Positions 1 through 17,011 of a DNA stretch of 64,000 nucleotides are shown here, one piece after another. Numbering within the stretch: the stretch's first letter is position 1; every line of letters starts with the position of its first letter. This stretch comes from Myxococcota bacterium (GTDB taxonomy: Bacteria; Myxococcota_A; UBA9042; PHBI01; JAWLBL01): contig JAWLBL010000017.1 in NCBI GenBank assembly GCA_041687695.1, positions 96,001 to 160,000 on the forward strand, written 5' to 3'. A program made the position numbers and the translations under genes. The notes under the pieces were generated by a model that saw nothing but the letters and a program-made list of their open reading frames with translations, searched no databases and had not been told where the DNA came from.

Positions 1-371
1 GGGGTGCGCGCACCACGTCGAACGATCCGATGTGGCGATACGTGAACGTGCGACGCATCGTCAACGCGGTCATCGCCAGTGTGGAACGAGGTTTGCAATG
101 GGCAGTGTTCGAGCCCAACACCGAGTTCCTGTGGAAGAGTCTTCACAGGGAGGTGTCCGGGTTCCTGCTCGAGCTGTGGCAGCAGGGTTACTTCCGCGGC
201 CGCAGCCCAGAAGAGGCCTTCTACGTGAAGTGCGATCACGAGACGAATCCCCAGTCCGTACGTGACGCGGGTCAAGTCATCATCGAGTGCGGCGTAGCGC
301 CCGTGCGGCCCGCCGAGTATCTTGTCTTCCGAGTAGCGACCGAGCTGGAAGAGGTCGGCCCCGGCGCCTGA
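1..371 (+). CDS. Contractile tail sheath protein, C-terminal part (5'-truncated by window edge)
   Basis: Open frame from nt 3 reads GARTTSNDPMWRYVNVRR...WAVFEPN...EEAFYVKCDHETNP...GVAPVRPAEY, the typical sheath C-terminal signature of CIS/phage sheaths. Confidence 0.93.
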   Translation, partial: GARTTSNDPMWRYVNVRRIVNAVIASVERGLQWAVFEPNTEFLWKSLHREVSGFLLELWQQGYFRGRSPEEAFYVKCDHETNPQSVRDAGQVIIECGVAPVRPAEYLVFRVATELEEVGPGA

Positions 372-493
372 CGCCAGGACCGGGACCCCGGAGCCAACCG
401 GGGACAGGCGACCTCGCCTGGGGTCGATAGACCACAAGAGCAACGCCCCAGGGTCCCAATCTGCGGACCCTCAAGGCATCAAGGAGCGCAACG

Positions 494-1168
494 ATGGGTG
501 CTTCCGAATTCGCGACGGGAAAGCTGAGCGCCACGACTTCGGTGAAGGGCGTGAACCTCGGAGGCTCGGTCGGCGGGATGCTGGCGAACACGGTCGGGCC
601 CAAGGTGGATGCCCTCCTGGGGCAGATAGGCCTGGGCGGCCTGCTCGGGGGCATGCTCCGCACCGACCCGGACGTGCCCTACCACTACTTCCTCGAGATC
701 AATGGTCTGCAGTGCGTGCGGTTCAAGGAGGTCAGCGGCCTCAAGATGACGACCGAGCTGCAGCGGATGCGCGAGGGCGGTAACAACATCCACGAAGTGG
801 TGATGATCGGGCCGCAGAAGTTCGAGCCGTTGACCGTGAAGAAGGGCTTCTACTCCTCGGCCAGCGAGTTCTTCGATTGGATGCGGAGCATCCATGACGC
901 TGGAGCGGGCCTCAACAGCAAGCGGCGTCAAGACATCTCGCTCGTCGTGCTCAACACCAAGAGCGTCGAGGTCTGCCGCTTCAACTTCACCAACGCCTTC
1001 ATCATCGAGTACGAGGCGCCGTCCTTCAACGCGGACGCGAAGGAGATCGCGTTCGAGTCGATCAAGATCCACTACGACACCTTCGAGTTCAAGCCCGCCG
1101 CCTTCACGGACAAGCTCATCGGCGGCGCCCTGAGCGCGGGGATGTCCGCGCTCGGCAACGCCCTCTAG
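494..1168 (+). CDS. T4 gp19-like tail tube protein (Afp1/Afp5-like) with Gly/Leu-rich N- and C-terminal extensions
   Basis: DP..YHYFLEING..F.EVSGL....REGGNN...LTVKKG..FFDW...FNA...IAFESI gp19 tube pattern; AAGGAG RBS upstream; directly after the sheath. Confidence 0.88.
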   Translation: MGASEFATGKLSATTSVKGVNLGGSVGGMLANTVGPKVDALLGQIGLGGLLGGMLRTDPDVPYHYFLEINGLQCVRFKEVSGLKMTTELQRMREGGNNIHEVVMIGPQKFEPLTVKKGFYSSASEFFDWMRSIHDAGAGLNSKRRQDISLVVLNTKSVEVCRFNFTNAFIIEYEAPSFNADAKEIAFESIKIHYDTFEFKPAAFTDKLIGGALSAGMSALGNAL

Positions 1169-1200
1169 TCCTGGATTCCTGGCACCCTCGGAGCTGAACC

Positions 1201-4200
1201 ATGGACCAGCCGCACACGATTAGCGAACTGCTCGCCAAGGGCCGGACGCCCTCCGACGGAGAGCTGGCCGATCTTCGCCAGCTGGGGGCCTTCGCTGCGT
1301 CGATGTATGGCCGCTATCTCCATGGCCTGAACGCGGAGCGGACCCGCGCGCTCGGAGCGCGCCCTGGGGACTGGGCGCGGAACCTCAGCGGCGGGCTGGG
1401 GGCGGCCACTGCGACGCGGTGGAGCGAGGGGATCGGGCTCGGCAGTCAGCTCCTCGCCGACCTGTGGAGTGGCTTCTGGCAGGTCGGTGCGGGCGGCAGC
1501 GACGGATACCAGGGGCTCGATGTCGCCGACTTCGAGTGGATCGGCATCGAGGAAGAGGAGGCCGTTCAGATCGCGGCCGCTCCCGGTGACGACTCGATGC
1601 GCCGCAGGAGTCGTCCTTCTCTATTCGGCAAGCCCACGCAGCCGCGCCGCTCGCGACCCTCGGTCGCCGACACTGTCCGGGCCGCCAAGGACGGCGGCCG
1701 TCGCGCCACCGCTCCATTGACGTGGATGGACGGCGGCTCGGTGTCGCCCGAGGCGATCGGAGCGCTCATCGAGTCCGGACTGTTCGTCGCGGATCAGCTC
1801 GCGCCGACCACGCTGCTTGGGGGCGCCGAGGGCGACGCAAGCCGTGCGAATCGGTCGGCTGCAGGCGGACTGGACCTCCGAGAGCGGGGTGCTCTGGGAG
1901 TGCCTGACAGCGCCGTGCGGTCAGGGCCGGGGCTCGACCGCGCCGCAGGGTTCGGCAATGCACCCATCCTGCTGGACGGGTTGCGGGTCGATGGGCGTAC
2001 GCCGGCGCTCGCTTCAGGGCTTCGCCTGGCCAATGACGCCTTCGAGCCACAGGGGCCGCGTGGGACCGGTCTCGCCCTGACGGCGGGGCGGGCCGAGCGG
2101 CTCGCGGAGCTGAGCCCGGCATTGGCGGCAGCGCTCGCCCAGGCCTCTGCGCCGACCGCGCGACCCGTGTACGCGTTCTTCGATTCGGTCGAGGGCGAGT
2201 TCATCGCGTTGACCGACGAAGTGGTCGACGCAGGACCGCCTCGCGACGGAGGCGCGTCGGTGCCGACCCGCCGCAGTGCGCGGAGCTCGAGGGGCAGCAC
2301 TGCGCTCTCCTCGGGTTCCTTCGCTGCGGGCACCGCCGGTCCTTCGGCTCAGGCGCGCATGCAGCCGGCGCCTTCCGTCGCGCGGCTCGAGCGAATCGTA
2401 CCCGCCGCGCCAGCGACGTCTGGCGTGCGCGCTTACAACACCGCTGCGACGCCCGTGGTTTCGTCGTCGTTCATCCGAGGAGGTCACCTGGCCTCGAACC
2501 CGACCGGCCTCGTGTCGCCGCAGCTCGTCGGCACGTCGGCCGCGATGGGCGCGTCGGGCGTGGCCCGAGCAGGGGCTCCTCTGGCCCCGACGCTCGCCTC
2601 CGAACAGCCTGGGCGCCTCCCGATGGCTGCCCTGACTTCCATGGTGGCCGGGGGCGATCGGCCGTCCCCCCAGATCGCGCGACAGGTCGCCTACACGCCG
2701 GCTGGGCTCGCTCGGGCTCGCCAGCAGCGCTCCGCGATCGCGGCCCCTCGGGTGGCCCTCGTCGACGGCCAGTCGCTCACCGTCGCGCGCGGCTCGCTCT
2801 CGGGCGGAGACATCCTCGCGTCGGTCCAGACTCCGACGGACGTGGAGGCGACGCAGGCTATCCAGAAGCGCTCGATGGAGTGGGCTGAAACGACGGCCCT
2901 CCCTTCGTCCAGCCGGGCGCAGCTTACGGCCAGCGCGCCGCAATGGCGCCTCGCCGCCGACGCCGGACCCGACCTCCCGCTGGGCGCCGGGCTCTCACGC
3001 GCCGAGGCCTTCGCGGGAGCCGTTCAGCTCAGGCAGCCGTCCAAGCCGCAGACCGCGTTCACTCCCGTTGTCTCTCGCGAGTACGGCGTGACTGACGCCA
3101 CGAGCCGTTGGAGCCAGGATCCCGTGCTCGACGGCGTCGTCTGGATCGCGTTGGGCGAACAGACGCAAGGCGCGGACCCGCACGGTCTGCCGATGGCGAC
3201 GGTTCCGTCGCGTCGCGCCGTCACCCTCGCCAAGGCCGACACCGTGGCTCGGCTGGCGCATGGAGCGACGCTCGCCCGCTCGGCGCAGCCGACCGCCCCC
3301 GGGCAGGCGACCACCGACACCGATGGCTCGGTTGCGCGCGCTTCGGGTGCGGCGACGTTGGGACAGGCGCCCGTCGCATCGCGAGTGTTCGACGTTCAGC
3401 GGCAGGTGCTCGCCAATTCCTCGGCTGGGCCGTCGGGTCCGCTGAGTCGGGGGCTGGTGGATGGCGTGTACCTGCGGGCGCCCATGGCGGCCGGCAGGGG
3501 CTTGGTAGAGAATCAGGTCGACGAGGGACGCGACCGCCTGATGGCGTCGCCGGGTCGCGGAGCGGCCCTGACGTCCGGGCTCGCGACGGTTGGAGCCGCC
3601 GCTCAGCTGTTCGCCCGGGTCGCGCCTCGCGCGGGATACCTGAGCGCCGAGCTTTCGGACCTGCCGTTGGTGAGGGGGGAGGTTCGATCCCAGGACGAGG
3701 CCGTGACCGAGCAGGCGCAGCCTGGTCGCGCCGACGCGACGGGCGCTGAGCGCACTGCGGGATCTCAGCTCGTCGCTGCGCTCGGGAGCGGCCCCACGGC
3801 GCAGATCGCGTCGACGGTGAACGCGCTGCGACACGCGCGGATCGCGGCGCGGCGTCCAGTGAGCACCGCGCGTGAGAGCCTCTCGGTGCTCCCCGCCCTC
3901 GGTAGCGTGTTCCGTCACGAGGCCAGCCGCGCGACGGCGGCGCGGACGCAGCTGCCGCCCCTGGCGCGGCTCGAGCGCGGGCCCGAGGCTTTCACCCGAC
4001 GGGCGTCGACCTCGGCCGGCGCCCTGGGTTTGGACGGCGCCGACATCCTGTCGGTGTTGCGTGTGGCCGGACCGGAGCAGCGCGCTGAAGTGCGTCGTGC
4101 GTTGCGCATCTCCGGCTGGTCCGAGCCCGAGCTGCGGATGCTGGAGCTTTCCGAGACGGGTACGAGCGCCGCAGACGTAGGTGAGGCAGCCCTGTCCTCA

Positions 4201-6171
4201 GTCGGTGGCGTCGCTGGACGTACGACGACCCGAAGCGTGGGCGAGGCCGCTGGCCGTTCCGCGCCAGCGACAACGGCACGTTCGCTCGCTCGTATCCTGA
4301 CTGGCGCCGAAGCGCTTGCCGGTGACGCCGCACGGATGGGTGGCGAGGCGGCGGCTGCGATCGGCCGCGACCTCCCGATGCTCAGCGGCAAGGCTGATGC
4401 CTACTTCGGGGCTTTGGCGCCAGAACGGTCAGCGCGGGCGGGCGTTGCGTCGTCGATGACGGTCCGGGACGCCATCGGCGAGTTGCTGGGGCTGGCGACT
4501 AACGCGCCTGGCATGGCGAGCGATTCGCCGGTTCCGCAGAGCCTGCGAAGGGCCGTGTTGGCGCTCGCGAGTCGGGACGGCGGCGCCGCGAAGGCGACCG
4601 CGACTGGGCCGGCGGCCATCGCGCAGGGCCTTGCGAGCTCGTCCCTGTCCCTCGCGAACGCGGCGTCGCGCCTCGAGATGCGACCGGGAGATCGCGGGAT
4701 CTCGGACGTCGGGCGGCAGGCGATGGGGACGGCCGCCACCGGCGTGTCGGACGCGGGCGCTGGCGCGACCTCCCTCCTGAACCCGGCCTGGTCGCGCCGT
4801 GACGACCTGAACCTGGTCGCGGCCGAGCCGCAGCGTCCAAGCCTCGAGGATCGGGTGGTTCAGGCGCTGAACGCCTCGGTCGGAGGACCGGCGGGCGCCG
4901 GTCGTCTGCTCTCGCCGCTGCGTCAGGCGCGCGTCGTCGGCGACTCCGTATCGGCAGGGAATGCTCAGCCCGGCATTGGCGGCCCGTCGGCTGCTTCGTG
5001 GGGCGGGGCCGTCGCGCGGCTCGCCGACCAGTCGGTGGCGCTCGGGAGTGTGTTGGCGCCCGAGGTGATGCTAGGGGGCATGCGCGCGCCCGAGGTCGCA
5101 GCCGTAGCGGCGGGTCGGCCGTACCTGCGAGAGACCCCGGGAGAGTTGGCCGCGACCTTCGGTGTGGGTGAGCGGAACGCAGTTCCGTTGTCTCCGGTGG
5201 CGGAGGCGGGGCGTCCGGCGCGCGGCAGCCGTCGTGGACAGAACGGGGATGCGGCCTCGCCCACTGTCGGAGCGCAGACGAGCGCGGCCTTGCAGAGGGA
5301 CGGCGGGACGACAGGCGCTGGCAGGACGGCCATCGACGCGAGCTCGCCGGTCGCGAAGCTGCTGCGCCTCATCGATCCCAGCGGCGGTCGGCAGGTGCTC
5401 GGTCGTTCGCTGGCGGCGGGTGAGTTGGGCGCCCTCGTGCGTCAGCTGGGCGTTCTCTCGCCGGATCGGGTCAGCCACGACCGGGCGGTCGGGGACTTCG
5501 CCCTCGCGTGGGCGGGGCGCGTTGACGGCGCGCGGACGGGGCTCGACTTCGGCCTGTCGACGACGCGCTCCGAGCTGCTCGCGTTCTTCCGTAGGGGTGA
5601 GATGTCGCCCGAGGGCCGCGTAGCGGCCGAGTCGCCCATTGGCGATGCGGGCTTCGTAGCGCCGGCGGCCTCGGCGCCTCGACGTGAGGCGCGTGGGGGG
5701 CTGGCCGCTCCGGATCGCAGCCGGCTCCGCCGCGTTGCTTCGCACGTCCAGTCGAGCAGCGCCGGCGCATCGCGACCGCAGCACGGGGCGTCGGCCGCGA
5801 TGCGCGACCTGGACTGGAGCTATGTCAACACGGGGTCGACGACCTCGGTCGGCAACGCCAACCTGGGCGGCCTCGCCGCGTCCGTAGTCGGCGAGAGCGG
5901 GAGCGCCCGTGTTCCGATGCCCCTGGTCGCACCCGCCGTCAAGGCGGTCGCGCAGACGGCGCTCCTGAGTTCGAGAGCGGAGGAGTCTCCCGCAGCGCGG
6001 GTCAGCTCCAGCAGCGCCCCCGCTGGGGGGGCGTCTTCTCAAGAGGCAGCAACTCCCGCCGAAGCGCCTTCGCTGACCAAGGAAGCGCTCGAGGCCCTGG
6101 CCGTCGAAATGGCTGACCGCATCGCGCGGCGGATGAAGCGCGAGAAGGAGAGGACAGGATGGGCTTTCTAG
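1201..6171 (+). CDS. 1,656-aa Ala/Gly/Ser/Arg-rich low-complexity eCIS protein (putative tape-measure-like or lumenal protein)
   Basis: Long uninterrupted ORF between tube and LysM genes, overlapping the next start. C-terminal helix LEALAVEMADRIARRMKREKERTG resembles the end of the low-complexity proteins found at this position in eCIS loci. Confidence 0.7.
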   Translation: MDQPHTISELLAKGRTPSDGELADLRQLGAFAASMYGRYLHGLNAERTRALGARPGDWARNLSGGLGAATATRWSEGIGLGSQLLADLWSGFWQVGAGGSDGYQGLDVADFEWIGIEEEEAVQIAAAPGDDSMRRRSRPSLFGKPTQPRRSRPSVADTVRAAKDGGRRATAPLTWMDGGSVSPEAIGALIESGLFVADQLAPTTLLGGAEGDASRANRSAAGGLDLRERGALGVPDSAVRSGPGLDRAAGFGNAPILLDGLRVDGRTPALASGLRLANDAFEPQGPRGTGLALTAGRAERLAELSPALAAALAQASAPTARPVYAFFDSVEGEFIALTDEVVDAGPPRDGGASVPTRRSARSSRGSTALSSGSFAAGTAGPSAQARMQPAPSVARLERIVPAAPATSGVRAYNTAATPVVSSSFIRGGHLASNPTGLVSPQLVGTSAAMGASGVARAGAPLAPTLASEQPGRLPMAALTSMVAGGDRPSPQIARQVAYTPAGLARARQQRSAIAAPRVALVDGQSLTVARGSLSGGDILASVQTPTDVEATQAIQKRSMEWAETTALPSSSRAQLTASAPQWRLAADAGPDLPLGAGLSRAEAFAGAVQLRQPSKPQTAFTPVVSREYGVTDATSRWSQDPVLDGVVWIALGEQTQGADPHGLPMATVPSRRAVTLAKADTVARLAHGATLARSAQPTAPGQATTDTDGSVARASGAATLGQAPVASRVFDVQRQVLANSSAGPSGPLSRGLVDGVYLRAPMAAGRGLVENQVDEGRDRLMASPGRGAALTSGLATVGAAAQLFARVAPRAGYLSAELSDLPLVRGEVRSQDEAVTEQAQPGRADATGAERTAGSQLVAALGSGPTAQIASTVNALRHARIAARRPVSTARESLSVLPALGSVFRHEASRATAARTQLPPLARLERGPEAFTRRASTSAGALGLDGADILSVLRVAGPEQRAEVRRALRISGWSEPELRMLELSETGTSAADVGEAALSSVGGVAGRTTTRSVGEAAGRSAPATTARSLARILTGAEALAGDAARMGGEAAAAIGRDLPMLSGKADAYFGALAPERSARAGVASSMTVRDAIGELLGLATNAPGMASDSPVPQSLRRAVLALASRDGGAAKATATGPAAIAQGLASSSLSLANAASRLEMRPGDRGISDVGRQAMGTAATGVSDAGAGATSLLNPAWSRRDDLNLVAAEPQRPSLEDRVVQALNASVGGPAGAGRLLSPLRQARVVGDSVSAGNAQPGIGGPSAASWGGAVARLADQSVALGSVLAPEVMLGGMRAPEVAAVAAGRPYLRETPGELAATFGVGERNAVPLSPVAEAGRPARGSRRGQNGDAASPTVGAQTSAALQRDGGTTGAGRTAIDASSPVAKLLRLIDPSGGRQVLGRSLAAGELGALVRQLGVLSPDRVSHDRAVGDFALAWAGRVDGARTGLDFGLSTTRSELLAFFRRGEMSPEGRVAAESPIGDAGFVAPAASAPRREARGGLAAPDRSRLRRVASHVQSSSAGASRPQHGASAAMRDLDWSYVNTGSTTSVGNANLGGLAASVVGESGSARVPMPLVAPAVKAVAQTALLSSRAEESPAARVSSSSAPAGGASSQEAATPAEAPSLTKEALEALAVEMADRIARRMKREKERTGWAF

Positions 6172-6908
6172 ACACTGTGAAGTCCAAGGCCGGCGAGCTC
6201 AAGAGCACCGTCGACAAGAAGATGGCCGGTGCCCACCTCGAGCACACGGCGTGGGGGCAGCTCGTCAAGGCCAAGCTCGAGATCTTCGATCTCTACGAGA
6301 AGAGCGCGAAGATTGAGGAGTTTCCTTTTAGGTTCAATCCGACGACCTTGAAGGTAACGCGCTCGGCGACCTTCGAGGAGGTTCCGACCACGGCGACGGG
6401 CAAAGATGTTCGCTGGAAGAACACGGCGCCCACCAAGGTCGAGTTCGGAGATCTGTGGTTCGATACCTATGAGGAACGCGCGAACGTCCGCGACAAGTAT
6501 ATTCGTCCTCTTGAAGCACTGCTGGAGTACAACGCGACATCGCATCATGTGCCCAGTGTGCGTTTCGTGTGGGGCGACTACACCTACGACACGACGAAGT
6601 ACTACGTGAACGGTCTGACGGTCGAATACACGATGTTCCTGCCGACGGGTATGCCGGTGCGGGCCAAGGCCACCCTTCAGCTGACCGAGGTCAATCCGAT
6701 CAAGGACCAGCAGAAGAAGGAGTCGAAGGAATCGCCCGACCACGCCAAGATCTACACGGTGCGCCGGGGCGACACCCTGCAGAGCATCGCGTTGGCGGAG
6801 TACGAGGACCCGCGCGAGTGGCGACGCATCGCCTCGAGCAACGGCATCGACGATCCCATGTCGGTCAAGCCCGGTACCAAGCTCCTGGTGCCGCCCATCC
6901 TGAAGTAG
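6159..6908 (+). CDS. CIS tube-initiator protein with C-terminal LysM domain (Afp7/Pvc7-like)
   Basis: FRFNPTTL...LWFDTYE...VRFVWG...YTMFLPTGMPVRAKATLQLTE followed by LysM YTVRRGDTLQSIA..EY.DP..WRRIA..NGIDDP...PGTKLLVP. Confidence 0.9.
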   Translation: MGFLDTVKSKAGELKSTVDKKMAGAHLEHTAWGQLVKAKLEIFDLYEKSAKIEEFPFRFNPTTLKVTRSATFEEVPTTATGKDVRWKNTAPTKVEFGDLWFDTYEERANVRDKYIRPLEALLEYNATSHHVPSVRFVWGDYTYDTTKYYVNGLTVEYTMFLPTGMPVRAKATLQLTEVNPIKDQQKKESKESPDHAKIYTVRRGDTLQSIALAEYEDPREWRRIASSNGIDDPMSVKPGTKLLVPPILK

Positions 6909-6932: not shown

Positions 6933-8099
6933 ATGTCCAGCTCCAATCGCGAGGTCTTGAGCCTCGTCGTCAAGTTCGACGGGGATACGGCCATCTCCGG
7001 GGACAACGGCTCGGTCGAGACGAAGGATGGCGATCACATCCTTCGGTTCCAGGTCGACCAACGCCTCGACAGCCCTGACTTCTTCTCGCTGGACCTCCAG
7101 ATGCTCAGCGAGGTCGATTTCATGGTGCTCGACAAGGTCAAGCCGGGGATGGCCATCGAGATCTTGGCTGGGTACGACACGGAAGCGACCCTCTTCAAGG
7201 GCGAAGTCAGCTACGTCGAGCCCTTCTTCCCGGCCGACGCCGCAGAGTTCGTCCGGGTGAGCGGCTACGACAAGTCGCATCGGCTGACGCGCGGCACCAG
7301 TAGCCGGACCTGGGGTGACGGCGTTGAGGCCAACGACGAGGTGGGCGCCATCGCTGGCCAGGTCGTCAGCGGATCGAAGGCGCGCAAAGGGAACACGAGC
7401 GATTCGTTGAGCGCCGAGACGGACACGATCTCGACGAAGCTCGAGTACTTGCCGCAGGTCGAGGTGAACGACTATCAGTTCATCCGAGGGCTGGGGCTCG
7501 GGGCGGCCCTCACGATCGACTCGAAGTCGGCGGATGATGCGGCGAAGCTCGGCTTCAAGAAGGTCACGATCACCGGGTCGCCCAAGGTCACCATCTGTCG
7601 CGAACATCCAGAGCCGACCGACGCCCGACAGGTCTTGGACGCTTCGTTCTGTCTGTCGACGGTGAAGCAAGTAGCGCGTGTCGAGGTGCGCGGCTGGAAC
7701 CCGAAGGAGAAGCAGCCGATCCTTGGAGTCGCCGAGGCCGTGAGCGAGGCGTTCGCTGGGACGACCGGCCCTGCGGCTGCAGGCAAGGCCCACTACGGCA
7801 GCAGCAGCAGCGGCCGGGTGCTCACGATTGTCGATCAGCCGGTCGCGTCGACTGAAGAGGCCGAGCTCATCGCCGCGTCGGTGCTCGATCAGCTCGCCAT
7901 GGATTTCGTCACGGCGGACGTGGAGATCGAGGGGGTGCCCGAGCTCATGGCGGGTGACGTCGTCGAGCTCAAGCAGTTCGGAAAGGTCTACAGCGGGACG
8001 TATCTGGCCGAGTCCGTGCAGCACGTCTACTCAGCGGCCGGTGAGATGCCGTACGTCTGCAGGATCAAGCTGGCACGCAACGCGGCGCCCGAAGGCTGA
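6933..8099 (+). CDS. Baseplate hub protein (phage late control D / gp27-like, the N-terminal half of VgrG); no gp5 spike domain
   Basis: GYD..HRLTRG, Q...NDYQF, VEVRGWNPKEKQPI, IEGVPELMAGDVVEL..FG..YSG.Y....V.H; the ORF ends after the hub with no OB-fold or beta-helix. Confidence 0.82.
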   Translation: MSSSNREVLSLVVKFDGDTAISGDNGSVETKDGDHILRFQVDQRLDSPDFFSLDLQMLSEVDFMVLDKVKPGMAIEILAGYDTEATLFKGEVSYVEPFFPADAAEFVRVSGYDKSHRLTRGTSSRTWGDGVEANDEVGAIAGQVVSGSKARKGNTSDSLSAETDTISTKLEYLPQVEVNDYQFIRGLGLGAALTIDSKSADDAAKLGFKKVTITGSPKVTICREHPEPTDARQVLDASFCLSTVKQVARVEVRGWNPKEKQPILGVAEAVSEAFAGTTGPAAAGKAHYGSSSSGRVLTIVDQPVASTEEAELIAASVLDQLAMDFVTADVEIEGVPELMAGDVVELKQFGKVYSGTYLAESVQHVYSAAGEMPYVCRIKLARNAAPEG

Positions 8100-8240: not shown

Positions 8241-8268
8241 TTGACAAGGCGCGGTGCTTTCTTATGAT
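8241..8268 (+). promoter_or_regulatory. Sigma70-like promoter for the baseplate operon
   Basis: TTGACA-16 nt-TATGAT, near consensus in a very GC-rich background. Confidence 0.7.
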
Positions 8269-8303: not shown

Positions 8304-8495
8304 ATGGTCTCGGATTCGTATTTGGATGACCTCAGCCTGATCCAGGACGTCCTCGATGAGGTCGCGAACGGTCGAACCGAAGGGCATCCTTGCCCCTTCT
8401 GTGGAGGGGGGCCCCTCGATGTGAAGGCGGACGAGGCCCGCGTCGCGATCAAGTGCCCGGGTTGTCGCAAGACGGTCGAGGGGCGCTTCGCGTAA
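8304..8495 (+). CDS. Small zinc-ribbon protein (63 aa), first gene of the baseplate operon
   Basis: CPFC and CPGC pairs; AGGAG RBS 8 nt upstream of ATG 8304; lies downstream of the promoter. Confidence 0.72.
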   Translation: MVSDSYLDDLSLIQDVLDEVANGRTEGHPCPFCGGGPLDVKADEARVAIKCPGCRKTVEGRFA

Positions 8496-8520: not shown

Positions 8521-8919
8521 ATGAAGAACTTCTTGGGGCGCGGGTTTGGATTCCCCGTGGAGGTGGACGCGCACGGCGCCTTCGCCATGGCGGAGTTCGA
8601 AGAGAGCGTCCACCAGTCGGTCCGGATCATCATTGGGACGGCGCCGGGCGAGCGGCTGATGCGTCCAGAGTTCGGGTGCGCCATTCACAACCTGGTCTTC
8701 CATCCGAACGACCCGAACACCTGTGCTCAGGCCGCGATGGCTGTGAACGACGCGCTGGTGAAGTGGGAGCCGCGTATCCGGGACCTGTCCGTGCGGGCCT
8801 ATCCCTCGAGCACCGACGAAAACGCCATCTACATCACGATCGAGTATCGGGTGCGTAGGACGAACAACCTTCACAACCTCGTCTACCCGTTCTTCCTGCG
8901 GAGGGAGCAAGATCTATGA
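8521..8919 (+). CDS. GPW/gp25 family baseplate wedge protein (Afp9-like)
   Basis: FLGRGFGFP...IIGTAPGERLMRPEFGC...WEPRI...NLVYPFFL. Confidence 0.95.
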   Translation: MKNFLGRGFGFPVEVDAHGAFAMAEFEESVHQSVRIIIGTAPGERLMRPEFGCAIHNLVFHPNDPNTCAQAAMAVNDALVKWEPRIRDLSVRAYPSSTDENAIYITIEYRVRRTNNLHNLVYPFFLRREQDL

Positions 8920-11900
8920 TCCCCAGTCCTAACCTCGACGACCGCCGCTGGCAGGACATCGTCGAGGAGGCCGTTCGGCTGATCCCGCAGTACTGCCCCG
9001 AGTGGACGAACTTCAACCCGTCGGATCCCGGCATCACGCTGCTCGAGCTGTTCGCGTGGATGACCGAGATGGCCGTCTACCGGCTCAACCGGGTGCCGGA
9101 GCGGAACTACCTGGCCTTCCTCAACATGATGGGGATCCGGCTCCAGCCTCCACAGCCGGCGCGGTCGCTCGTCCACTTCCAGATCAGCGACAAGATCGAC
9201 CAGGTCCGGATCCCGGCGAACACGCGGGTCGCGACGAAGCCGGCTGGCGACCAGCCCGCCATCGTGTTCGAGACGGAGCGGGACCTGCTGGCCCTCAAGA
9301 ACCAGCTCGTCCGCTGCATGAGCCAGTACGCCCAGCAGTTCTCGGACAACTCGCCGTTCACCGACGGCCAGCGCGGGCCGTTCGAGGTCTTCGGTGGGGC
9401 GAGGAGCATCGAGCGCTACCTGTACCTGGGCGACGACCGCCTGGCCGCGTTCAACGAGGACGCCATCCTGGTCGTTCGGTTCGAGTCGCAGGGCGCCGGC
9501 GAGCGTGAGTTCCACGAGCTGCTGGAGTGGGAGTACTGGGACGGCAGCCGTTGGCGCGAGCTCGTCCGTCCTTCGATGGAGCTCGAGCGCAACTCGGTCG
9601 CGTTCCAGGGCCCGCCCACCTTCGAGAAGACGTCGGTGAACGACGTCGAGAGCTGGTGGATCCGGGGACGCCTGTTCGAGGTCCCGAAGGGCGACGACGA
9701 GACGGTCATCGACACGATCTCGGCGCGCATCGAGGTGCTCGGCGAGGGCGTGCAGCCCGAGCACGCGCTCTGCAACGCCGAAGGCGACATCTACGCGACG
9801 CTCGATCTCGACAAGAACTTCCTGCCCTTCGGCAAGGCGCCGCAGATCGACTCGACGCTCTACCTGAGCGCCGACGAGATCTTGTCGCAGCCCGATACGA
9901 CGGTCCGGGTCGACGTGACCCTCTCGGATCAGTCGGTCGCCGATCGCGCCCGCCCGTCGCACGATCTGCTGCTGCGTTGGGAGTACTTCAGCGGCAAGCG
10001 CTGGAAGGTCCTGGCCAAGGTCAAGGCCGCCGATGGCGCCATCGAGAGCGACTTCGGATTCGTCGACGGCACCAAGTGCTTCAGCGACTCCGGCTCGATC
10101 TCGTTCTCGCGCCCCAAGGACCTGACCGCGACCGAGGTCAACGGGACGGCCGGGCTGTGGATCCGCTGCCGCATCGAGCTCGGCAACTATGGTATCCCGG
10201 GCACCTACGAGCTGGTGGACGACACCTGGATCTGGAAGGACGAGCACCCGCTCAAGCCTCCCACGCTGAAGGGCATCGCCTTCAAGTTCCAGGAGGAGCC
10301 GCACCCGTTCAGCAGCTGCCTCGTGTACAACGACTTCGTCTTCACCGATCACAGCAAGATGGCGGCGACGGAGTACAAGCCGTGGCAGGCCTTCCAGCCG
10401 GTGGCGGAGGAGTCGCCGACCTTGTTCATGGGGTGGTCGGCGCCGTTCCCGAACGAGCCGTGCTCGGTGTTCTTCAACATCGTGGACTCGGAAGGCAAGG
10501 GTGGACGCAACGCGCTGCGCGCCTTCGACGACCGCGCGGATCGTTACGTCGAGCAGCGCGTCGTCTGGGAGTTCTGGGACGGTAAGGGGTGGGCGCCGCT
10601 CGCGCCGAAGGACACCACCGAGAACTTCACCCAGCCGGGCTTCATCGAGTTCGTGGGACCGCCCGAGTTCCGCAAGTCGCGCCGCTTCGGCGAGAGCCTG
10701 TACTGGATGCGGGCGCGCCTCGAGATGGGCGGCTACGACGAAGCGCCTCGCTGCGATCGCATCCTCATCAACGCGACGTACGCGTTGAACGTGACCACCT
10801 ACGGCGACACGCCGCTCGGCTCGAGCCGCGGGACGCCCAACCAGTTCTTCCACTTCCCTCGCGGTCCCGTGCTCGATGGCGAGGCGCTGCTCGTGCGCGA
10901 GCCCGAGCGCCCCCGGGACGAGGATCTCGAGGCCGTCGTCTCCGTCTATGGCGAGGCGGGGATCGCCGAAGACGGCGACGGGCAGGGGTATTGGGTGCGC
11001 TGGCGCCCCGTGGAGAGCATGTTCGACTGCGGCCCCAAGGATCGCGTCTACGTCAAGGACATCTCCACCGGCGAGATCCGGTTCGGAGACGGGGTCCGCG
11101 GCATGATCCCCCCCAAGGGCGACAAGAACATCCGCGCGGGTCGGTTCCAGACGGGCGGTGGTGCGACCGGCAACGTGCCGGCCGAGGCCATCGCCGTGAT
11201 GAAGCAGAACCTGGCCTTCGTCAGCGCAGTGACCAACCCGTATCCGGCCGCTGGCGGCTGCGACATGGAGACGGTCGAGGAGGCCAAGCTCCGCGCGCCA
11301 CACATGCTCAAGGCCCGCAACCGGGCCGTGACGGTCGACGACTTCGAGTGGCTGGCCATGGAGGCCTCCAACTCGGTGGCGCGCGTCAAGTGCCTGCCCT
11401 CGGTCTCGCGCGAGGGTGAGGTGACGGTCATCGTCGTGCCGAAGACCAGCTTCCACGCCTCGCTCGAGGAGAAGCCCGTCCCGACGGCGGAGCTTCTGAA
11501 GAAGGTCCGTGGCTACCTGGCCGAGCGCAAGCTGGTCTCCACCATCGTCAACGTGGTGCGGCCGTCCTACGCCGAGCTGTCGATCGAGGTCGAGATCGTC
11601 CGCATGACGAGCGCGCCGAGCGACCGCATCAAGCGCCAGATCGAGCAGGCGCTGCGCCGATTCCTGCACCCGCTCGTCGGCGGTCGGCAGGGCAAGGGAT
11701 GGCCTTTCGGTCGCGCGGTCCTGAAGGTCGACCTCTACCATGTGGTCGAGCAGGTCGACGGCGTCGACTTCGTCGACAAGATTCGCCTGCGCGACGCCGA
11801 GCGCGGGGTCGAGGTCGAGCAGCTCAAGCTGCTCGACGACCAACTCGTGCACCTCGTGAACGTCACCGTGGTCGAGAAGGCGCATGACCGCATCGTCTGA
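8916..11900 (+). CDS. Baseplate J-like assembly protein (Afp11-like), 994 aa
   Basis: PNLDDRRWQD...PEWTNFNPSDPGITLLELFAW; IRFGDGVRGMIPP; GGGATGNV; RNRAVTVDDFE; FLHPLVGG..GWPFGR. Confidence 0.95.
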   Translation: MIPSPNLDDRRWQDIVEEAVRLIPQYCPEWTNFNPSDPGITLLELFAWMTEMAVYRLNRVPERNYLAFLNMMGIRLQPPQPARSLVHFQISDKIDQVRIPANTRVATKPAGDQPAIVFETERDLLALKNQLVRCMSQYAQQFSDNSPFTDGQRGPFEVFGGARSIERYLYLGDDRLAAFNEDAILVVRFESQGAGEREFHELLEWEYWDGSRWRELVRPSMELERNSVAFQGPPTFEKTSVNDVESWWIRGRLFEVPKGDDETVIDTISARIEVLGEGVQPEHALCNAEGDIYATLDLDKNFLPFGKAPQIDSTLYLSADEILSQPDTTVRVDVTLSDQSVADRARPSHDLLLRWEYFSGKRWKVLAKVKAADGAIESDFGFVDGTKCFSDSGSISFSRPKDLTATEVNGTAGLWIRCRIELGNYGIPGTYELVDDTWIWKDEHPLKPPTLKGIAFKFQEEPHPFSSCLVYNDFVFTDHSKMAATEYKPWQAFQPVAEESPTLFMGWSAPFPNEPCSVFFNIVDSEGKGGRNALRAFDDRADRYVEQRVVWEFWDGKGWAPLAPKDTTENFTQPGFIEFVGPPEFRKSRRFGESLYWMRARLEMGGYDEAPRCDRILINATYALNVTTYGDTPLGSSRGTPNQFFHFPRGPVLDGEALLVREPERPRDEDLEAVVSVYGEAGIAEDGDGQGYWVRWRPVESMFDCGPKDRVYVKDISTGEIRFGDGVRGMIPPKGDKNIRAGRFQTGGGATGNVPAEAIAVMKQNLAFVSAVTNPYPAAGGCDMETVEEAKLRAPHMLKARNRAVTVDDFEWLAMEASNSVARVKCLPSVSREGEVTVIVVPKTSFHASLEEKPVPTAELLKKVRGYLAERKLVSTIVNVVRPSYAELSIEVEIVRMTSAPSDRIKRQIEQALRRFLHPLVGGRQGKGWPFGRAVLKVDLYHVVEQVDGVDFVDKIRLRDAERGVEVEQLKLLDDQLVHLVNVTVVEKAHDRIV

Positions 11901-12795
11901 CAACCTCGGCAGCCGCCCAGCGCCGGTCCGGAAGGTCGTCCTTCCGGAGGTGGCCGGGCTGCAGCTCGACGACGCGCGCGTCGTCCTGACGAGCGCGGGG
12001 CTCGACCATGTGCGCGTGCACTACGTCGAGGCGTACGCGGACGAGTTCAGCGTCGTCGAGCAGATCCCGCATCCGGGCATGCTGGTCGACCGCACCCGCG
12101 AGATCACGCTCCACGTCGCGCGCACCAACATGCTGGCGTACCTGCCGCAGGTCTACCAGCAGTCGTCGCCCGGGTTCCTCAAAGGCTACCTGTACATCGT
12201 CCAGACGATCTTCGATCGCCTGTACCAGCGGCTCGACCACATCCACGAGCTGTTCGACCCGCGGACGACGGACCCCGAGTTCCTGCCGTGGCTCGCGAGC
12301 TGGCTGGCTGTCGGGCTCAACCGCGACTGGACCGACCTGCAGACCCGCAAGATGCTGCTCGCGGCGACGCGGCTGTTCCCGTACCGCGGGACGTCGCGCG
12401 CCATCAGCGAGTTCGTCCGCATCTACACGGGGGCGAGCGTCACCATCGAGGAGAACAGCTGGCCGTTCCGGGGGTTCCGGGTCGGCGTGCATTCGACCGT
12501 CGGTGAAGACACGGTCATCTTGCCGGACATGAACCTCGCGCACTGCTTCGTGGTGCGGCTCGATCGGCCGGCCGCGGTCGTCAGCGAGGACGAGATCATC
12601 CGGATCCACGAGATCATCCAGGCGCAGAAGCCGGCTCACACCAGCTACTTCCTCGCGTTCAGCGACGAGGCGGAGTCGGGTGAGATGGGGATGTTCATGG
12701 AGATCGGGACGTCGTCGATCGGGATGGGGATGGGCATCGGCATGGGCGTCGGCGCGGCCGACGTCGTCGCGATGTCAACGTCGGACGGCGAATAG
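11884..12795 (+). CDS. PASTA domain fused to P2 gpI-like baseplate wedge/tail protein
   Basis: N-terminal VVLPEVAGLQLDDARVVLTSAGL...VVEQIPHPG.LV.....ITLHVA (PASTA pattern); then YLPQVY...FDPRTTDPEFLPWLASW...YRGT..AI...QKPAHT (Tail_P2_I pattern). Confidence 0.85.
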   Translation: MTASSDNLGSRPAPVRKVVLPEVAGLQLDDARVVLTSAGLDHVRVHYVEAYADEFSVVEQIPHPGMLVDRTREITLHVARTNMLAYLPQVYQQSSPGFLKGYLYIVQTIFDRLYQRLDHIHELFDPRTTDPEFLPWLASWLAVGLNRDWTDLQTRKMLLAATRLFPYRGTSRAISEFVRIYTGASVTIEENSWPFRGFRVGVHSTVGEDTVILPDMNLAHCFVVRLDRPAAVVSEDEIIRIHEIIQAQKPAHTSYFLAFSDEAESGEMGMFMEIGTSSIGMGMGIGMGVGAADVVAMSTSDGE

Positions 12796-12831: not shown

Positions 12832-14367
12832 ATGGCCAACGACACGAAGGGTTATAGCCGGGTCAACTTCTTCACCGGCTTTCAGACGACGGCGGACGAC
12901 TGGAACGACGTCATCCGCTACGACGTCGAGAAGCACAAGCTGCACAACCGGCTCTTCCATGGGCCGGGCGTCGTGCCCTCGGTCGGGGGAGGCCTGAAGG
13001 TCTCGGCGCGCGGTCGCGCGGACCTGTCGGTCGAGGTGTCGCCGGGTTACGCCATCGATGCCTCGGGCAACGATCTCCACCTGGGCGAGCCCGAGATCAA
13101 GACCATCAACCCGGGCGACTTCAAGCTCCCGCAGACGGTCTACGTCGTCCTGAAGTACATCGAGGAGCTGACCGACTTCGTCAGCTACCGGGCCAACCTC
13201 GAGTACAAGGGGCACCGGCGGGTCTCCGAGCGCGTGAAGGTGGAGACGATCATCACCGAGCCGGACATCCGGCACGAGGTGGAGATCGCGCGTATCCACC
13301 TGACCAAGGACGTCCGCCGCATCACGGACGCCAAGGACCCGCTCAATCCGCGCGAGAACGAGATCGATCTGCGGTTCGTGCCCATCGCCGGCGTCGTCGG
13401 CTCGAACCTGTCGCCGGCCGTCCTGCGCGAGCTCGCGGATGTCATCGAGGCGTCCCGGTCGGTCTACGCGCACATGTTCCACAACATGAAGATCCTGCCG
13501 GCGGCGGACGTGGAGCACGCGCTCATCACGCTCGACATGTTCCGGCGGCTCAACCTCATCGACGCGCGCAGCCTGTTCGAGCTGTGGTCGGTCGTCTTCA
13601 ACCTGCAGACGCAGCTGGTCGAGGACGTCGAGCTCAACTACCCGCAGTTCTCGTCGAAGAAGGAGTTCGCCTCCTTCAAGAAGCACGTCGAGCTGCTCGA
13701 GGGCATGTACGCGGAGGGCAAGTTCACCCCCGAGTTCATGACCAACATCCTGGGCTACCAGCGCAAGGGAACCGAGAACCTGACCAGCGTCTTCTCGGCC
13801 AAGGTCAAGGCCAAGCGTCAGGCGGACGCGCCGGCCGCGGCCGCGGCGACGGACGCGGTCTGGGACAAGATCAAGCTCAAGAGCGACGACTTCACCGAGC
13901 TGCTCGAGATCGAGGGGGTCAAGCTCAAGCGGGTCGACGTCATCGATCTGCTCGACAAGACCTCGGAGTCCGGCCACAAGTTCCGCATCGTCGATGCGCG
14001 TGACAAGTACCGGACGCGCCAGAAGCTCAAGTATCCCGACGGGGTCATCGTCGAGGACGTCGGCATCGCCTTCGAGGGCGGCTACGCCGAGTTCGAGGTG
14101 TCGAACGTCACGCCGAACAAGGACCTCATCATGATCACCCGGTTCGACTACGTGCACGGCGACTGGGAGCAGGAGGTCCTCATCAACGGCAAGAAGGTGG
14201 GGACCGAGGTCTGCACCGGCGAGGATCGCAAGTTCCGCTGGCGCAACAGCCCCTTCAAGATCAGCGCCGAGTACGTGACGGACACGTTCCTCAGCGTCCG
14301 CAAGCTGCCGACCACGGCCGAGCGCGACATCAACATGTTCAAGATCTGGTTCTACCAGCCGGCCTGA
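12832..14367 (+). CDS. eCIS baseplate-anchored fibre/receptor-binding protein with probable C-terminal carbohydrate-binding jelly-roll domain
   Basis: N-terminal RVNFFTG...ADD......HKLHNR.FHGPGVV...VSPGYAIDASG is typical of eCIS fibre anchors; beta-rich C-terminus (VLINGKKVG...RWRN..F.I...WFYQ); AGGAG RBS before ATG 12832. Confidence 0.75.
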   Translation: MANDTKGYSRVNFFTGFQTTADDWNDVIRYDVEKHKLHNRLFHGPGVVPSVGGGLKVSARGRADLSVEVSPGYAIDASGNDLHLGEPEIKTINPGDFKLPQTVYVVLKYIEELTDFVSYRANLEYKGHRRVSERVKVETIITEPDIRHEVEIARIHLTKDVRRITDAKDPLNPRENEIDLRFVPIAGVVGSNLSPAVLRELADVIEASRSVYAHMFHNMKILPAADVEHALITLDMFRRLNLIDARSLFELWSVVFNLQTQLVEDVELNYPQFSSKKEFASFKKHVELLEGMYAEGKFTPEFMTNILGYQRKGTENLTSVFSAKVKAKRQADAPAAAAATDAVWDKIKLKSDDFTELLEIEGVKLKRVDVIDLLDKTSESGHKFRIVDARDKYRTRQKLKYPDGVIVEDVGIAFEGGYAEFEVSNVTPNKDLIMITRFDYVHGDWEQEVLINGKKVGTEVCTGEDRKFRWRNSPFKISAEYVTDTFLSVRKLPTTAERDINMFKIWFYQPA

Positions 14368-14390: not shown

Positions 14391-14430
14391 ACCGGCCGCT
14401 CCGAGGATCCTCGGGGCGGCCGGTTCGTTT
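14391..14430 (+). terminator. Strong hairpin, probable terminator ending the baseplate operon
   Basis: ACCGGCCGCTCCGAGG / CCTCGGGGCGGCCGGT inverted repeat followed by TCGTTT. Confidence 0.65.
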
Positions 14431-14560
14431 CGAACGCCAGCCGGTGCCGTGTCCCGGCGGCCGCGAATGTCCCGGCAGTGGTCTTGATCTCTCGTCCCAA
14501 TGCTGCCATCGTCTGGGACAAGGTTTGTTTCGGGGCGACCGGAGACGGTCGTGGGGTGCC

Positions 14561-15187
14561 ATGGTTTGGGACTTCTTGAAGAGCCTCGGCCGGCAGAAGA
14601 TCACCGGCGTCGAGGCCATGGCGAACAGCAAGGCCATGGGCGCCCAGGCGAAAGCCAAGGCGAAGGTCGCCGCCAAGTTCAACAAGGCGGTGGACGGGGC
14701 GACGAACAAGGCCAAGGGCGTCGTCAAGAAGGACAAGAAGCCGGACCAGGCCGCGGACAAGGATGACAAGGGCATGGGATTCTTCTCGAAGAAGAAGGGC
14801 TCCGACGGTCCGGCCCCCCAGGCCGCTCCAGAGCCCGCGGAGTTCGGGGACAAGACGCAGTTCATCCAGGTCGTGGTCGACAAGCCGAAGGAGTGCGTCG
14901 GCTGGGTGGTCGTCCTCAGCGGCCCCCAGAAGGGGCAGGACTTCCGCATCGTCCCTGGCAAGAACGTCCTCGGCACCGCCGCCGATTGCGACATCGTCCT
15001 CACCGACCAGTACCTGTCGGCTCGGCACGCGGTCATCCGCTACGAGGAAGGGACCTTCATGCTCGTCGACCTCGACTCGACGAACGGCACCTTCGTCAAC
15101 GACAGCCGCTGTGCCAAGGAGGAGCTGATCGACAACGATCGCGTTCGCCTGGGCCGTACCGAGCTGAAGTTCAAGTCGCTCTACTGA
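14561..15187 (+). CDS. FHA domain protein with Lys/Ala-rich N-terminus
   Basis: VGWVVVLSGPQKGQDF...LG...LSARHAVI...LVDLDSTNGTFVN...LIDNDRVRLG. Confidence 0.9.
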   Translation: MVWDFLKSLGRQKITGVEAMANSKAMGAQAKAKAKVAAKFNKAVDGATNKAKGVVKKDKKPDQAADKDDKGMGFFSKKKGSDGPAPQAAPEPAEFGDKTQFIQVVVDKPKECVGWVVVLSGPQKGQDFRIVPGKNVLGTAADCDIVLTDQYLSARHAVIRYEEGTFMLVDLDSTNGTFVNDSRCAKEELIDNDRVRLGRTELKFKSLY

Positions 15188-15520
15188 CCGGCGACGCGCG
15201 CGGACGCCGAGCTTGGAGGGCGCTCGACCGTTCTCCGACCGTCGCCATCCTGGCCTTTGGTCGGCTCGTGATTCGTGTCGGCGGGGCCGCTGGGTGCGGC
15301 GCGAGGACGAGGCTAGACCGCGGGCCGTTGGGGTGCGCCGCTCGAGGCGGGGATACGCCACCTGAGCAAACGGCCCGCGGGGCGTTGACCGCGCGGTCTA
15401 TCTCCGCGATTGTATGGGCCGTCCATGGCCCGAACGGGCTGCTCGCGGGCGGGGAACGTGGGCCGTGGCCCCAATCGGAACGTGACGAGGCTGAGGAGGC
15501 GCATCGTGCGGCTGGAGACG

Positions 15521-17011
15521 TTGACAAAGAGCCGGTGGGTCGCGGGGGGGCTCATCGCAGCCTTCTTGACGCTGGGGCCGACGACGTCGGTGTTGGCGGC
15601 TAGCGATCGCCTGGACATCGAGTACGTGAAGACGGACGAGTTCCTCGCCAAGGGGACCATCCAGTTCTACGTGGACCTGCTCGACGACGACTACAAGGTC
15701 ATCTCCGGACTCTCCGGGGACGAGATCACGGTCTTCATCGACGGCCAGGAGGTCCCCGGGACCGTCCAGGTCCAGAGCTTCTCGGAAGCGCAGGAGCGGG
15801 TGGCGGTCGCCATCCTGATGAACGGCTCGCGTGGCTACGCCAAGCTCGAGGCCGCCGAGGACGACGAGGGCAACGCCGTTCAGGGGCCGCCGGAGGTCTT
15901 CGGGCTCCAGAAGCAGGGCTTCGCCGAGTTCGTGAAGAAGCTCGACACGAACGACCACTTCTCGGTGTACCTCTACAACGAGGCGGGGCTGAGGGTCGTC
16001 GACAACTGGAGCCAGGATCCGACCGGCGCGGCCGACCGCATCGAGAAGAACGCCAAGCTGAGCGACGAGTCGAAGTCCTCGCCGCTGCCGCCGCTTCTGT
16101 ACAAGAGCGTCAAGGACATCGTCGACGGCAAGATCGCCGAGGCCGAGAACCTCCCGCGCCGCAAGATCCTCCTGGTGATGTCGGACGGCAAGGACCGCTT
16201 CGAGTCCCAGGCCAAGAAGCTCGAAGGGACCATCGACCAGATCGTCGAGGCCGCCAAGGCGAACGGCGTCCGCATCTACACGCTCGGGTTCACGATGGAC
16301 CTGCCCGACCCGCTCGTGCAGTTCTCGAGCCTGGCGTCGAAGACGTCCGGCATCCATCGCGAGCTCGACGCCGGGCGGGTGACCGAGATCCCGATGGTGC
16401 TCGAGAACATCGCGACGGAGCTGAAGAAGCAGTACGTCGTCACGTTCAAGCCGCACGAGGACTTCAAGGGCGCCGAAGAGGCGGTGAAGGTCCGCCTCAA
16501 GCTCAAGAGCCCGCGAGGCAGCACGCTCGAGAAGGAGTACACGGAGCCGGTCAAGATCCAGAAGAAGCCCTTCGATTGGATGGGCCTGCTCAAGTGGATC
16601 GGCATCGGCCTCGGCAGCCTGCTCGGCCTGTTCCTCGTCTGGAAGCTGGTGGCCGGGATCCTCCGCGCGCGACGCAACGCGGCCAGCCAGCCGGTCGTCG
16701 AGGAGCAGTACAGCGGCCCATACAAGGGCAAGCTGCTGGCCACCGGAGGGGGGCTGATCGGCACTGAGTATTTCCTGACTGAGGATGTCACGACCATCGG
16801 CTCCATCCAGGGCAACGCGATCGTCCTGTCAGGGCCGGGGGTGTCCAAGCGCCACGCCGGTATCAAGATCGAGGACATGCGGTTCGAACTGGCCGACTTC
16901 GGCTCGACCAACGGGACCTACGTGAACGGCACCAAGATCACCAAGCAGTTCCTGCGCGACGGTGACCTGGTGTCCATCGGCGACAACGAGCTGCGCTTCA
17001 CGCTGAAGTAG
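15521..17011 (+). CDS. Signal peptide + vWA-like domain + transmembrane helix + C-terminal FHA domain
   Basis: TTG start with GGAG RBS; LLVMSDGKD and VRIYTLGF (vWA); TM WIGIGLGSLLGLFLVWKLV; FHA VSKRHAGI..DFGSTNGTYVNG...LRDGDLVSIG. Confidence 0.87.
   Translation: MTKSRWVAGGLIAAFLTLGPTTSVLAASDRLDIEYVKTDEFLAKGTIQFYVDLLDDDYKVISGLSGDEITVFIDGQEVPGTVQVQSFSEAQERVAVAILMNGSRGYAKLEAAEDDEGNAVQGPPEVFGLQKQGFAEFVKKLDTNDHFSVYLYNEAGLRVVDNWSQDPTGAADRIEKNAKLSDESKSSPLPPLLYKSVKDIVDGKIAEAENLPRRKILLVMSDGKDRFESQAKKLEGTIDQIVEAAKANGVRIYTLGFTMDLPDPLVQFSSLASKTSGIHRELDAGRVTEIPMVLENIATELKKQYVVTFKPHEDFKGAEEAVKVRLKLKSPRGSTLEKEYTEPVKIQKKPFDWMGLLKWIGIGLGSLLGLFLVWKLVAGILRARRNAASQPVVEEQYSGPYKGKLLATGGGLIGTEYFLTEDVTTIGSIQGNAIVLSGPGVSKRHAGIKIEDMRFELADFGSTNGTYVNGTKITKQFLRDGDLVSIGDNELRFTLK

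Follow-up and report, generated by a model that had tools for sequence, protein, structure and literature searches.

We found that a 64,000-nucleotide stretch of a Myxococcota genome (the window; contig C17, positions 96001-160000, of a 7.97-Mb, 99%-complete genome with 73% GC) carries the 3' portion of a contractile injection system (CIS), the locus of which begins ~4.7 kb 5' of the window. This is almost certainly a lineage-II-type CIS of several uncultured Myxococcota lineages, transmitted vertically as a single copy whose genes are dispersed across the chromosome. Among 301 sampled Myxococcota genomes, 58 of them from the organism's own class (UBA9042 in GTDB), the Cis13-like fibre protein matched at E < 1e-100 in 48 of the 58 and in 28 other Myxococcota (76/301 in all; 11 weaker matches were not counted). 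Sheath 1 identity was 83-94% in most full-length matches within the class, 69% in the divergent genome G157 and 72-88% in the other carriers. In a baseplate J tree (28 rows, quick search, support by the Shimodaira-Hasegawa-like approximate likelihood ratio test only, two long branches), a branch separated each of the six multi-member families from the rest, and the organism's own order formed one clade. On these sequences the baseplate tree follows the host families and the single-copy CIS is inherited vertically as a lineage trait. A scan of a genome collection yielded 55 loci, all metagenome-derived and titled mostly Myxococcota, Myxococcales or Deltaproteobacteria, with some implausible labels; no cultured carrier was found among these loci or the named protein matches, in pattern-based scans that miss divergent members. 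The host accordingly belongs to an uncultured lineage of Myxococcota type. A related protein is also present in Zixibacteria.

Retrieval of the upstream contig located the cap, sheath 1, tube 1 and chaperone genes just 5' of the window. The full order is lipoprotein, Pvc16/DUF4255 cap, sheath 1 (386 aa), tube 1, tail chaperone with a DUF6760 frame, sheath 2 (583 aa), tube 2, a 1656-aa low-complexity protein, CIS_tube-LysM protein, hub, zinc ribbon, gp25, baseplate J, PASTA-Tail_P2_I protein, Cis13-like fibre, FHA protein and a vWA-transmembrane (TM)-FHA protein. These genes form two modules, a tail module from the cap to the hub and a baseplate module from the zinc ribbon to the vWA-FHA gene. 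The sheath and tube inside the window are second copies, the first copies lying upstream (contig open reading frames (ORFs) read). A preliminary description, made from the letters of the window alone, had named sheath, tube, LysM initiator, hub, gp25, baseplate J, wedge and fibre genes, with no mention of the 1656-aa gene at 1201-6171, and all of the genes it named lie where it had placed them, on the + strand:

1..371, + strand: sheath 2, 3' end (C-terminus at 3-371; 583 aa in full, start ~1.4 kb before the window; PF17482, E 1e-17; full ORF from the contig)
494..1168, + strand: tube 2 (PF06841, E 8e-32; TIGR02241; weak CIS1/CIS5 families)
1201..6171, + strand: 1656-aa Ala/Gly/Ser/Arg-rich protein (orthologues 1030-1986 aa, N- and C-ends conserved)
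6159..6908, + strand: tube initiator Cis7, CIS_tube + LysM (PF19266, E 7e-22; PF01476, E 8e-8)
6933..8099, + strand: hub only, N-terminal part of Cis8/VgrG (NF033848 VgrG_rel, positions 21-340 of 547; PDB 9gtr residues 74-342)
8241..8268, + strand: sigma-70-like promoter match TTGACA-16-TATGAT before the baseplate module (11/12 matches)
8304..8495, + strand: 63-aa zinc-ribbon protein with two CxxC (<=700 bp 5' of gp25 in 46/59 loci)
8521..8919, + strand: gp25-like wedge Cis9 (PF04965, E 1e-26)
8916..11900, + strand: baseplate J Cis11, 994 aa (TIGR02243, E 5e-114, 382 bits against a cut-off of 155.8; best PDB match 9gtp, E 9e-92)
11884..12795, + strand: wedge protein Cis12, N-terminal PASTA + Tail_P2_I (PF03793 and PF09684 above cut-off; PASTA 25.8 bits, cut-off 23.2)
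12832..14367, + strand: Cis13-like fibre with beta shoulder, helical neck and CBM-like jelly-roll head (NF053767 weak, residues 14-125; predicted model)
14561..15187, + strand: soluble FHA protein with a conserved basic N-terminal segment (PF00498, E 7e-19)
15506..17011, + strand: membrane vWA-TM-FHA protein (FHA, E 5e-18; vWA fold; hydrophobic peaks at 12 and 367)

Tube 2 may serve as a Cis5-like tube adaptor, and the 1656-aa protein, which had no match in Pfam, NCBIfam or PHROG and no hydrophobic helix, appears tape-measure-like from its position and size. The promoter match is the sole such site within 5900-17700, with 0.7 expected in shuffles, and is a consensus match only. Just 5' of the window, the tail chaperone gene (L108:3860-4052) ends in GGGGGAAT and the DUF6760 frame (E 5e-16) goes on in the -1 frame. 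The GGGGGAAT motif is retained in 13 of the 15 loci printed, and since three of these have no start codon at the junction, a programmed frameshift like that of the phage G/GT chaperones is suggested. The cap gene is adjoined by the lipoprotein gene in 14/16 upstream regions, often after PP2C and UvrA genes; for the lipoprotein an atlas search gave a PPC-like hit, as a lead only. Contigs from RNA libraries of three studies span cap, sheath 1, tube 1 and sheath 2, without a silent-region control, and one of them (599 nt) differs nowhere from tube 1.

Parts of the locus show phage-tail homology, but gene content and conservation refute a prophage tail in decay or an R-type tailocin, a reading that is extremely improbable. 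No head, portal or terminase genes were seen in the ORFs examined from ~16 kb upstream through the window end, the CIS markers Pvc16 cap, CIS_tube initiator and DUF6760 are present, and across families identity is high and gene order fixed. The 33 ORFs of window 17.6-64 kb matched housekeeping families or none in a Pfam scan, with no phage head or type VI secretion system (T6SS) family among them. Hence the earlier preference for a CIS over a prophage stands. The third sheath gene of the genome sits in a separate prophage-like region on contig C9 (G000:C9:151000-178000), where portal-, capsid-, sheath- and Mu-like tail genes were recognised by reading ORF sequences rather than by family scans.

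Further parts of the system lie outside the locus. A single gp5-OB (spike) gene occurs in the genome (C3:1716-2531, 271 aa), with an SGNH-like gene on one side and a sugar-nucleotide gene on the other, as judged by reading the sequences. PAAR is likewise encoded once, on contig C24, and a DUF2169 adaptor gene follows it; a genome search for the Tox-PAAR-like family was empty. Hub and spike correspond to residues 74-342 and 375-464 of 9gtr, two halves of a single Streptomyces chain. The preliminary description had reported a hub without an adjacent spike: the hub gene does lack the spike part, and the spike only seemed to be missing because its gene lies elsewhere in the genome, on another contig. 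The Afp1-16-type gene set of extracellular CIS (eCIS) and phage-like protein translocation structures (PLTS) is thus represented by sheath, tubes, LysM initiator, gp25, baseplate J, wedge, fibre and Pvc16/DUF4255 cap, by a VgrG-like hub, spike and PAAR tip as separate unlinked genes, and by four WHD+AAA (Afp15-type) ATPase genes and 18 DUF4157 cargo matches, all scattered outside the locus. Seventeen DUF4157 proteins were scanned; 13 showed no second Pfam family and the others matched UCH, PG_binding_1, a weak SH3 and Tse3_N. The protein with the ubiquitin hydrolase (UCH) domain (G000:C22:18962-22198, L117) hints at a eukaryotic target for some cargo. At G000:C18:101065-111308 (L126), a WHD-AAA ATPase gene precedes a very large DUF4157 gene with the Tse3 N-terminal match, and this pair lies directly 3' of parA/parB-like genes.

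The same dispersal was found in relatives. Among 40 of them, the hub was detected in 31, a strong spike match in 31 (any match in 36) and PAAR in 33. Hub and strong spike were both present in 26 relatives and unlinked in 26/26, of which 24 had them on different contigs, so that fragmentation could explain part of this count. In G027 they are 113 kb apart, and in the single-contig genome G006 the hub lies at 0.74 Mb, PAAR at 5.77 Mb and the spike at 7.11 Mb. In G022 the spike, PAAR and DUF2169 genes adjoin one another, and family f51 has two spike genes 3' of the hub, which indicates that these are parts of one machine. DUF4157 copies number 1-43 per genome and 0 in four relatives that are also without hub and PAAR. 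Furthermore, the operon is split between hub and zinc ribbon in 6/18 informative relatives, at the place of the near-consensus promoter in this genome. One relative, G005, keeps the spike, PAAR, four DUF4157 genes and an N-terminal FHA-protein match, while hub, sheath and fibre were not found, pointing to an assembly gap or recent loss.

Linkage was counted in loci with enough flank, which overlap with the relatives' genomes, so the counts are not independent. The PASTA wedge was found in 47/47 loci (PASTA-bearing N-terminus aligned), gp25 in 44/44, the hub in 39/41 and a spike in 0/41; an FHA gene stood next to the fibre gene in 46/50 and vWA-FHA was present in 40/43. Together with the zinc ribbon (46/59), these figures bear out the earlier proposal of a distinct, conserved subtype in which PASTA wedge, zinc ribbon and FHA pair belong with the CIS. 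A sister CIS occurs in other Myxococcota families, with a hub-only gene, two sheaths and a short fibre. We saw it in G180, G289, G199, G053 and G068 (L182-L189), with a baseplate J of ~1185 aa in three loci and a 311-aa gene at the fibre position, and its sheath matched in 8/10 genomes of family f29, 5/6 of f25 and many of f40. Since the sister CIS shares the hub-only gene, the split hub is phylum-wide, whereas PASTA, zinc ribbon, carbohydrate-binding module (CBM)-headed Cis13 and FHA pair mark the present subclade.

Among known systems the CISSc of Streptomyces coelicolor (subtype IId) gave the best PDB matches for sheath (8bky), baseplate J (9gtp), hub and spike (both 9gtr). The sheath scored 452 bits (E 1e-134) against 8bky, compared with 205 for Pvc2, 181 for Afp3, 169 for 7adz and 132 for SalCIS 9r9h; baseplate J scored 312 bits against 9gtp versus 64 for the next match, and tube 1 was closest to 7adz. 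The earlier label of an Afp/PVC/MAC-type eCIS thus holds for the gene set but not for affinity, sheath and baseplate J being closer to CISSc, and both the sheath scores and the hub-only gene speak, by score rather than by tree, against subtypes Ia (Afp/PVC) and Ib (MAC/AlgoCIS). Placement in IId itself is opposed by the presence of Cis13 and by a split hub and spike instead of a fused Cis8, although the best matches are still CISSc. CISSc likewise has a Tail_P2_I-type wedge and a bitopic membrane protein (CisA) after the baseplate genes. In contrast to the present system, its hub and spike form one 643-aa chain (9gtr), its baseplate J has 652 aa instead of 994 and it has one sheath gene instead of two. 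CISSc is also described as fibreless (PMC12237407), whereas we found Cis13, a PASTA wedge and a vWA-TM-FHA membrane protein.

[quoted passage not shown] The eBAP3/Tail_P2_I group of eCIS is alike, by description, in its fibre gene after Tail_P2_I and a TssK-like shoulder; it is described as horizontally spread and highly variable in its tips (PMC12923769), whereas here the host lineage passes on a single conserved tip. PLTS-like clusters in Myxococcota metagenome-assembled genomes (MAGs) from the Zhenbei seamount also come from uncultured members of the phylum and have a sheath and gp19 tube without other phage genes, with two tube genes three ORFs apart according to the supplement legend, as in our locus (PMC11937823). 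They are probably the present or the sister system. The consulted parts of that paper note them only as eCIS, with no mention of PASTA, FHA, split spike, dispersal or inheritance, and report the tube gene as the most expressed gene in two marine Myxococcota MAGs (PMC11937823).

The T6SS (with Fha, PpkA and PppA), the archaeal T6SS and the T6SS-iv of Aureispira share with our system a contractile tail, which there works from the own membrane; the T6SS also has an FHA scaffold, and DUF4157 candidates and predation are given for Aureispira T6SS-iv (preprint). The phage-type sheath sets our system apart and its anchor candidates are unrelated by domain. A search of the 99%-complete genome yielded none of the TssB/C sheath, TssK and TssL families (PF05943, PF05936, PF09850) that would indicate T6SS i-iii, the E. 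coli control being positive; TssJ, TssM and ClpV were not seen among the locus ORFs, and no genome-wide search was made for them.

The last gene of the locus encodes a candidate membrane anchor, with a probable signal peptide, a vWA domain, one TM helix (residue 367) and a cytoplasmic FHA domain. The vWA domain falls below the Pfam cut-off (17.2 vs 23.8 bits) and was confirmed by fold. A vWA-FHA model matched 68/301 genomes at E 1e-30, of which 67 are Cis13-positive (full-length) and the remaining one has the hub, and orthologues are retained even when unlinked. In family f51 (L088, L090, L106), four FHA genes follow the fibre gene, including one for a short TM-FHA protein and one for a 750-840-aa FHA coiled-coil protein, and then an AAA ATPase gene. 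Orthologues of hub, PAAR, DUF4157, lipoprotein and FHA pair are absent together from G026, G030, G033 and G039, in which the PP2C gene is kept, so this loss is specific and no search failure. PP2C and a kinase gene upstream were rejected as system-specific, because they lie near the cap in 12/16 (PP2C) and 5 (kinase) regions but UvrA does so in 10; moreover, PP2C orthologues (53-55% identity) persist in those four genomes, which lack the CIS.

Phosphothreonine-binding FHA domains of the Fha/GarA type carry consensus Gly-Arg and Ser-x-x-His ligand residues. In both FHA domains of the pair Ser and His are kept, and Arg is replaced by an invariant Thr (soluble protein) or a consensus Ser (membrane protein). 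T98, I101, G137 and T138 of the soluble protein are invariant in 43/43 sequences, and a T-x-x-I motif, which we take to resemble an FHA ligand, precedes its domain. In Pfam, Yop-YscD_cpl scores as high as FHA. The suggestion of phospho-regulation in the preliminary description is weakened by the missing arginine and by the retention of the adjacent phosphatase without the CIS; phospho-control appears doubtful from these residues, and the domains would suit a structural scaffold, a part that FHA-fold domains play in secretion platforms, no less well than a phospho-switch.

The fibre was modelled with a predicted local distance difference test score (pLDDT) of 66.6 and a predicted template modelling score (pTM) of 0.38, and shows a beta shoulder, helical neck and jelly-roll head. 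The sugar-binding-like tip proposed earlier is supported by this model, in which the head adopts a CBM fold (Z 10-11, root mean square deviation (rmsd) 2.7-2.9 over ~120 residues) matching CBM35 (Z 11.1), CBM6 and CBM36. Shoulder and neck modestly match TssK (6n38_F, Z 9.6, rmsd 7.0, residues 40-317, TM-score 0.23) and IglD (Z 9.4, rmsd 8.3). The TssK resemblance was rejected as evidence for tethering, the match being modest and such a shape being typical of fibres carried by Tail_P2_I baseplates (PMC12923769) and found also in free AlgoCIS (PMC8894135). Across 65 orthologues, identity to the query was 56.5% for the head, 62.7% for the shoulder and 37.4% for the neck, compared with 53.8% for baseplate J and 0.378 for the hub. 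The head is thus as conserved as the baseplate, which implies a constant partner, either a self protein or a universal glycan; eCIS fibre tips are described as rapidly evolving (PMC12923769). Searching PDB sequences with a profile of the Cis13 alignment gave nothing meaningful, 43 members showed no Pfam family consistently, and an atlas search of the head gave DUF6805 at <=0.90, a lead only.

We propose, with a confidence slightly short of even, that this CIS is kept inside the cell, docks at the inner membrane via the FHA pair and fires DUF4157 cargo on contact. From the observed gene content, dispersal, conservation, co-occurrence and folds we infer assembly, cargo, docking, firing direction and target as follows. 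The tube and two-sheath rod would assemble on the hub with the trans-encoded spike and PAAR, and DUF4157 cargo would be loaded by the WHD-AAA ATPases. By means of six wedge-borne Cis13 trimers, or of the PASTA wedge, the particle would dock on the cytoplasmic side of the inner membrane, where it would be held by the soluble FHA protein and by the FHA tail of the bitopic vWA protein, the periplasmic vWA domain of which may sense or hold the envelope. Contraction would push the spike out into a touching cell and producer lysis would not be needed. Support for tethering, which the preliminary description had raised as a possibility, is circumstantial: related CIS have operon-linked membrane proteins, namely CisA (PMC12237407), SalCis20 with SalCis13 (PMC13266070) and Hbor_38620 (PMC11566945), as do membrane-associated CIS of another report (bioRxiv 10.1101/2024.01.29.577165), and Fha is a scaffold between membrane complex and baseplate in the T6SS (PMC13389060). 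More tentatively, the system could be a T6SS-like contact weapon, domesticated from a lineage-II eCIS by uncultured Myxococcota in an independent evolutionary step, with an FHA platform replacing TssJLM. Soluble FHA protein, vWA-TM-FHA protein, PASTA-tagged wedge and lipoprotein would then serve, from scattered genes, up to 43 interchangeable DUF4157 effectors, a picture we regard as conceivable rather than likely.

Several observations weigh against retention at the membrane. Nine of the 76 Cis13-positive genomes have no vWA-FHA match at E 1e-30 (two of the nine have a divergent vWA-TM-FHA gene beside the fibre gene), three counted matches in f51 are the small TM-FHA protein and not the vWA one, and co-occurrence is overstated because kin are not independent. 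The genome has 29 FHA-like domains, of which 13 keep the Arg and 10 were not parsed. No outer-membrane channel was evident, the linked lipoprotein offering the PPC-like lead only and not being found in two CIS-positive relatives. In the sister CIS the wedge had no PASTA in 2/2 scanned and no FHA gene was seen beside the fibre gene. TssK-likeness, being general and shared with free AlgoCIS, is no sign of tethering, and the glycan-binding fold of the head suits an outside target.

That last point leads to a released extracellular CIS, rather unlikely in our estimate, for which some cells would lyse and the particles would bind prey through a conserved glycan recognised by the CBM-like head, and through PASTA or LysM, and inject DUF4157 proteins. 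The full eCIS set with cap, Afp15-type ATPases and DUF4157 proteins favours it, as do the predicted CBM35/CBM6/CBM36-like fold of the head, one DUF4157 protein with a peptidoglycan-binding domain and another with the Tse3 N-terminal match, and similar marine Myxococcota MAG loci are interpreted as predatory eCIS in PMC11937823. The FHA pair might then control production or release and be no anchor. Nevertheless, a single invariant fibre type with a tip conserved like the baseplate occurs across several classes, the membrane protein is co-inherited and co-lost with the system, and the ORFs scanned around the locus showed no holin or endolysin family. Less probable still is a self-directed cytoplasmic CIS like CISSc, in which vWA-FHA would play the part of CisA and recruit particles, upon a signal, to the own membrane, leading to regulated death or a developmental switch. 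Its sheath, baseplate J, hub and spike have their closest solved relatives in CISSc, it is single-copy and vertically inherited, and CisA is likewise bitopic and encoded after the baseplate genes (PMC12237407). Against this, CISSc is given as fibreless in the same source and a fibre is present here, the PAAR tip and DUF2169 adaptor are retained, and the 1-43 DUF4157 proteins of each genome differ in their C-termini, which suggests an arms race against targets outside the cell.

Known contact-killing genes are reported to be confined to Myxococcaceae (PMC11821767), and prey killing by most uncultured Myxococcota is an open question for which this CIS, which the preliminary description had tied to predation, is a candidate. 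With a single-copy, vertically inherited CIS defined in 76/301 sampled genomes and its dispersed parts and candidate anchor named, the question becomes testable. If tethered, the system would be another independent step from eCIS to a T6SS-like device, with a different anchor, and if it is a contact weapon, it would be a core killing device of abundant predators without a T6SS. Gene dispersal also implies that locus-based eCIS surveys, in which VgrG, ATPase and DUF4157 genes are scored when clustered, may overlook or misinterpret systems of this kind. We regard it as a conserved variant of known CIS machinery, of which the PASTA/FHA architecture, dispersal and vertical inheritance appear new; no description of these was found in the searched literature, which largely did not cover subscription papers.

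Just 3' of the locus, tandem repeats lie at 17489-17688 (67 bp x3, 95% matches) and 19639-19848 (105 bp x2). The remainder of the window includes a TRAP-T transporter operon (26684-31434) and a respiratory cluster with Rieske, cytochrome b, COX1, CtaG and MauG-like genes (38957-47960).

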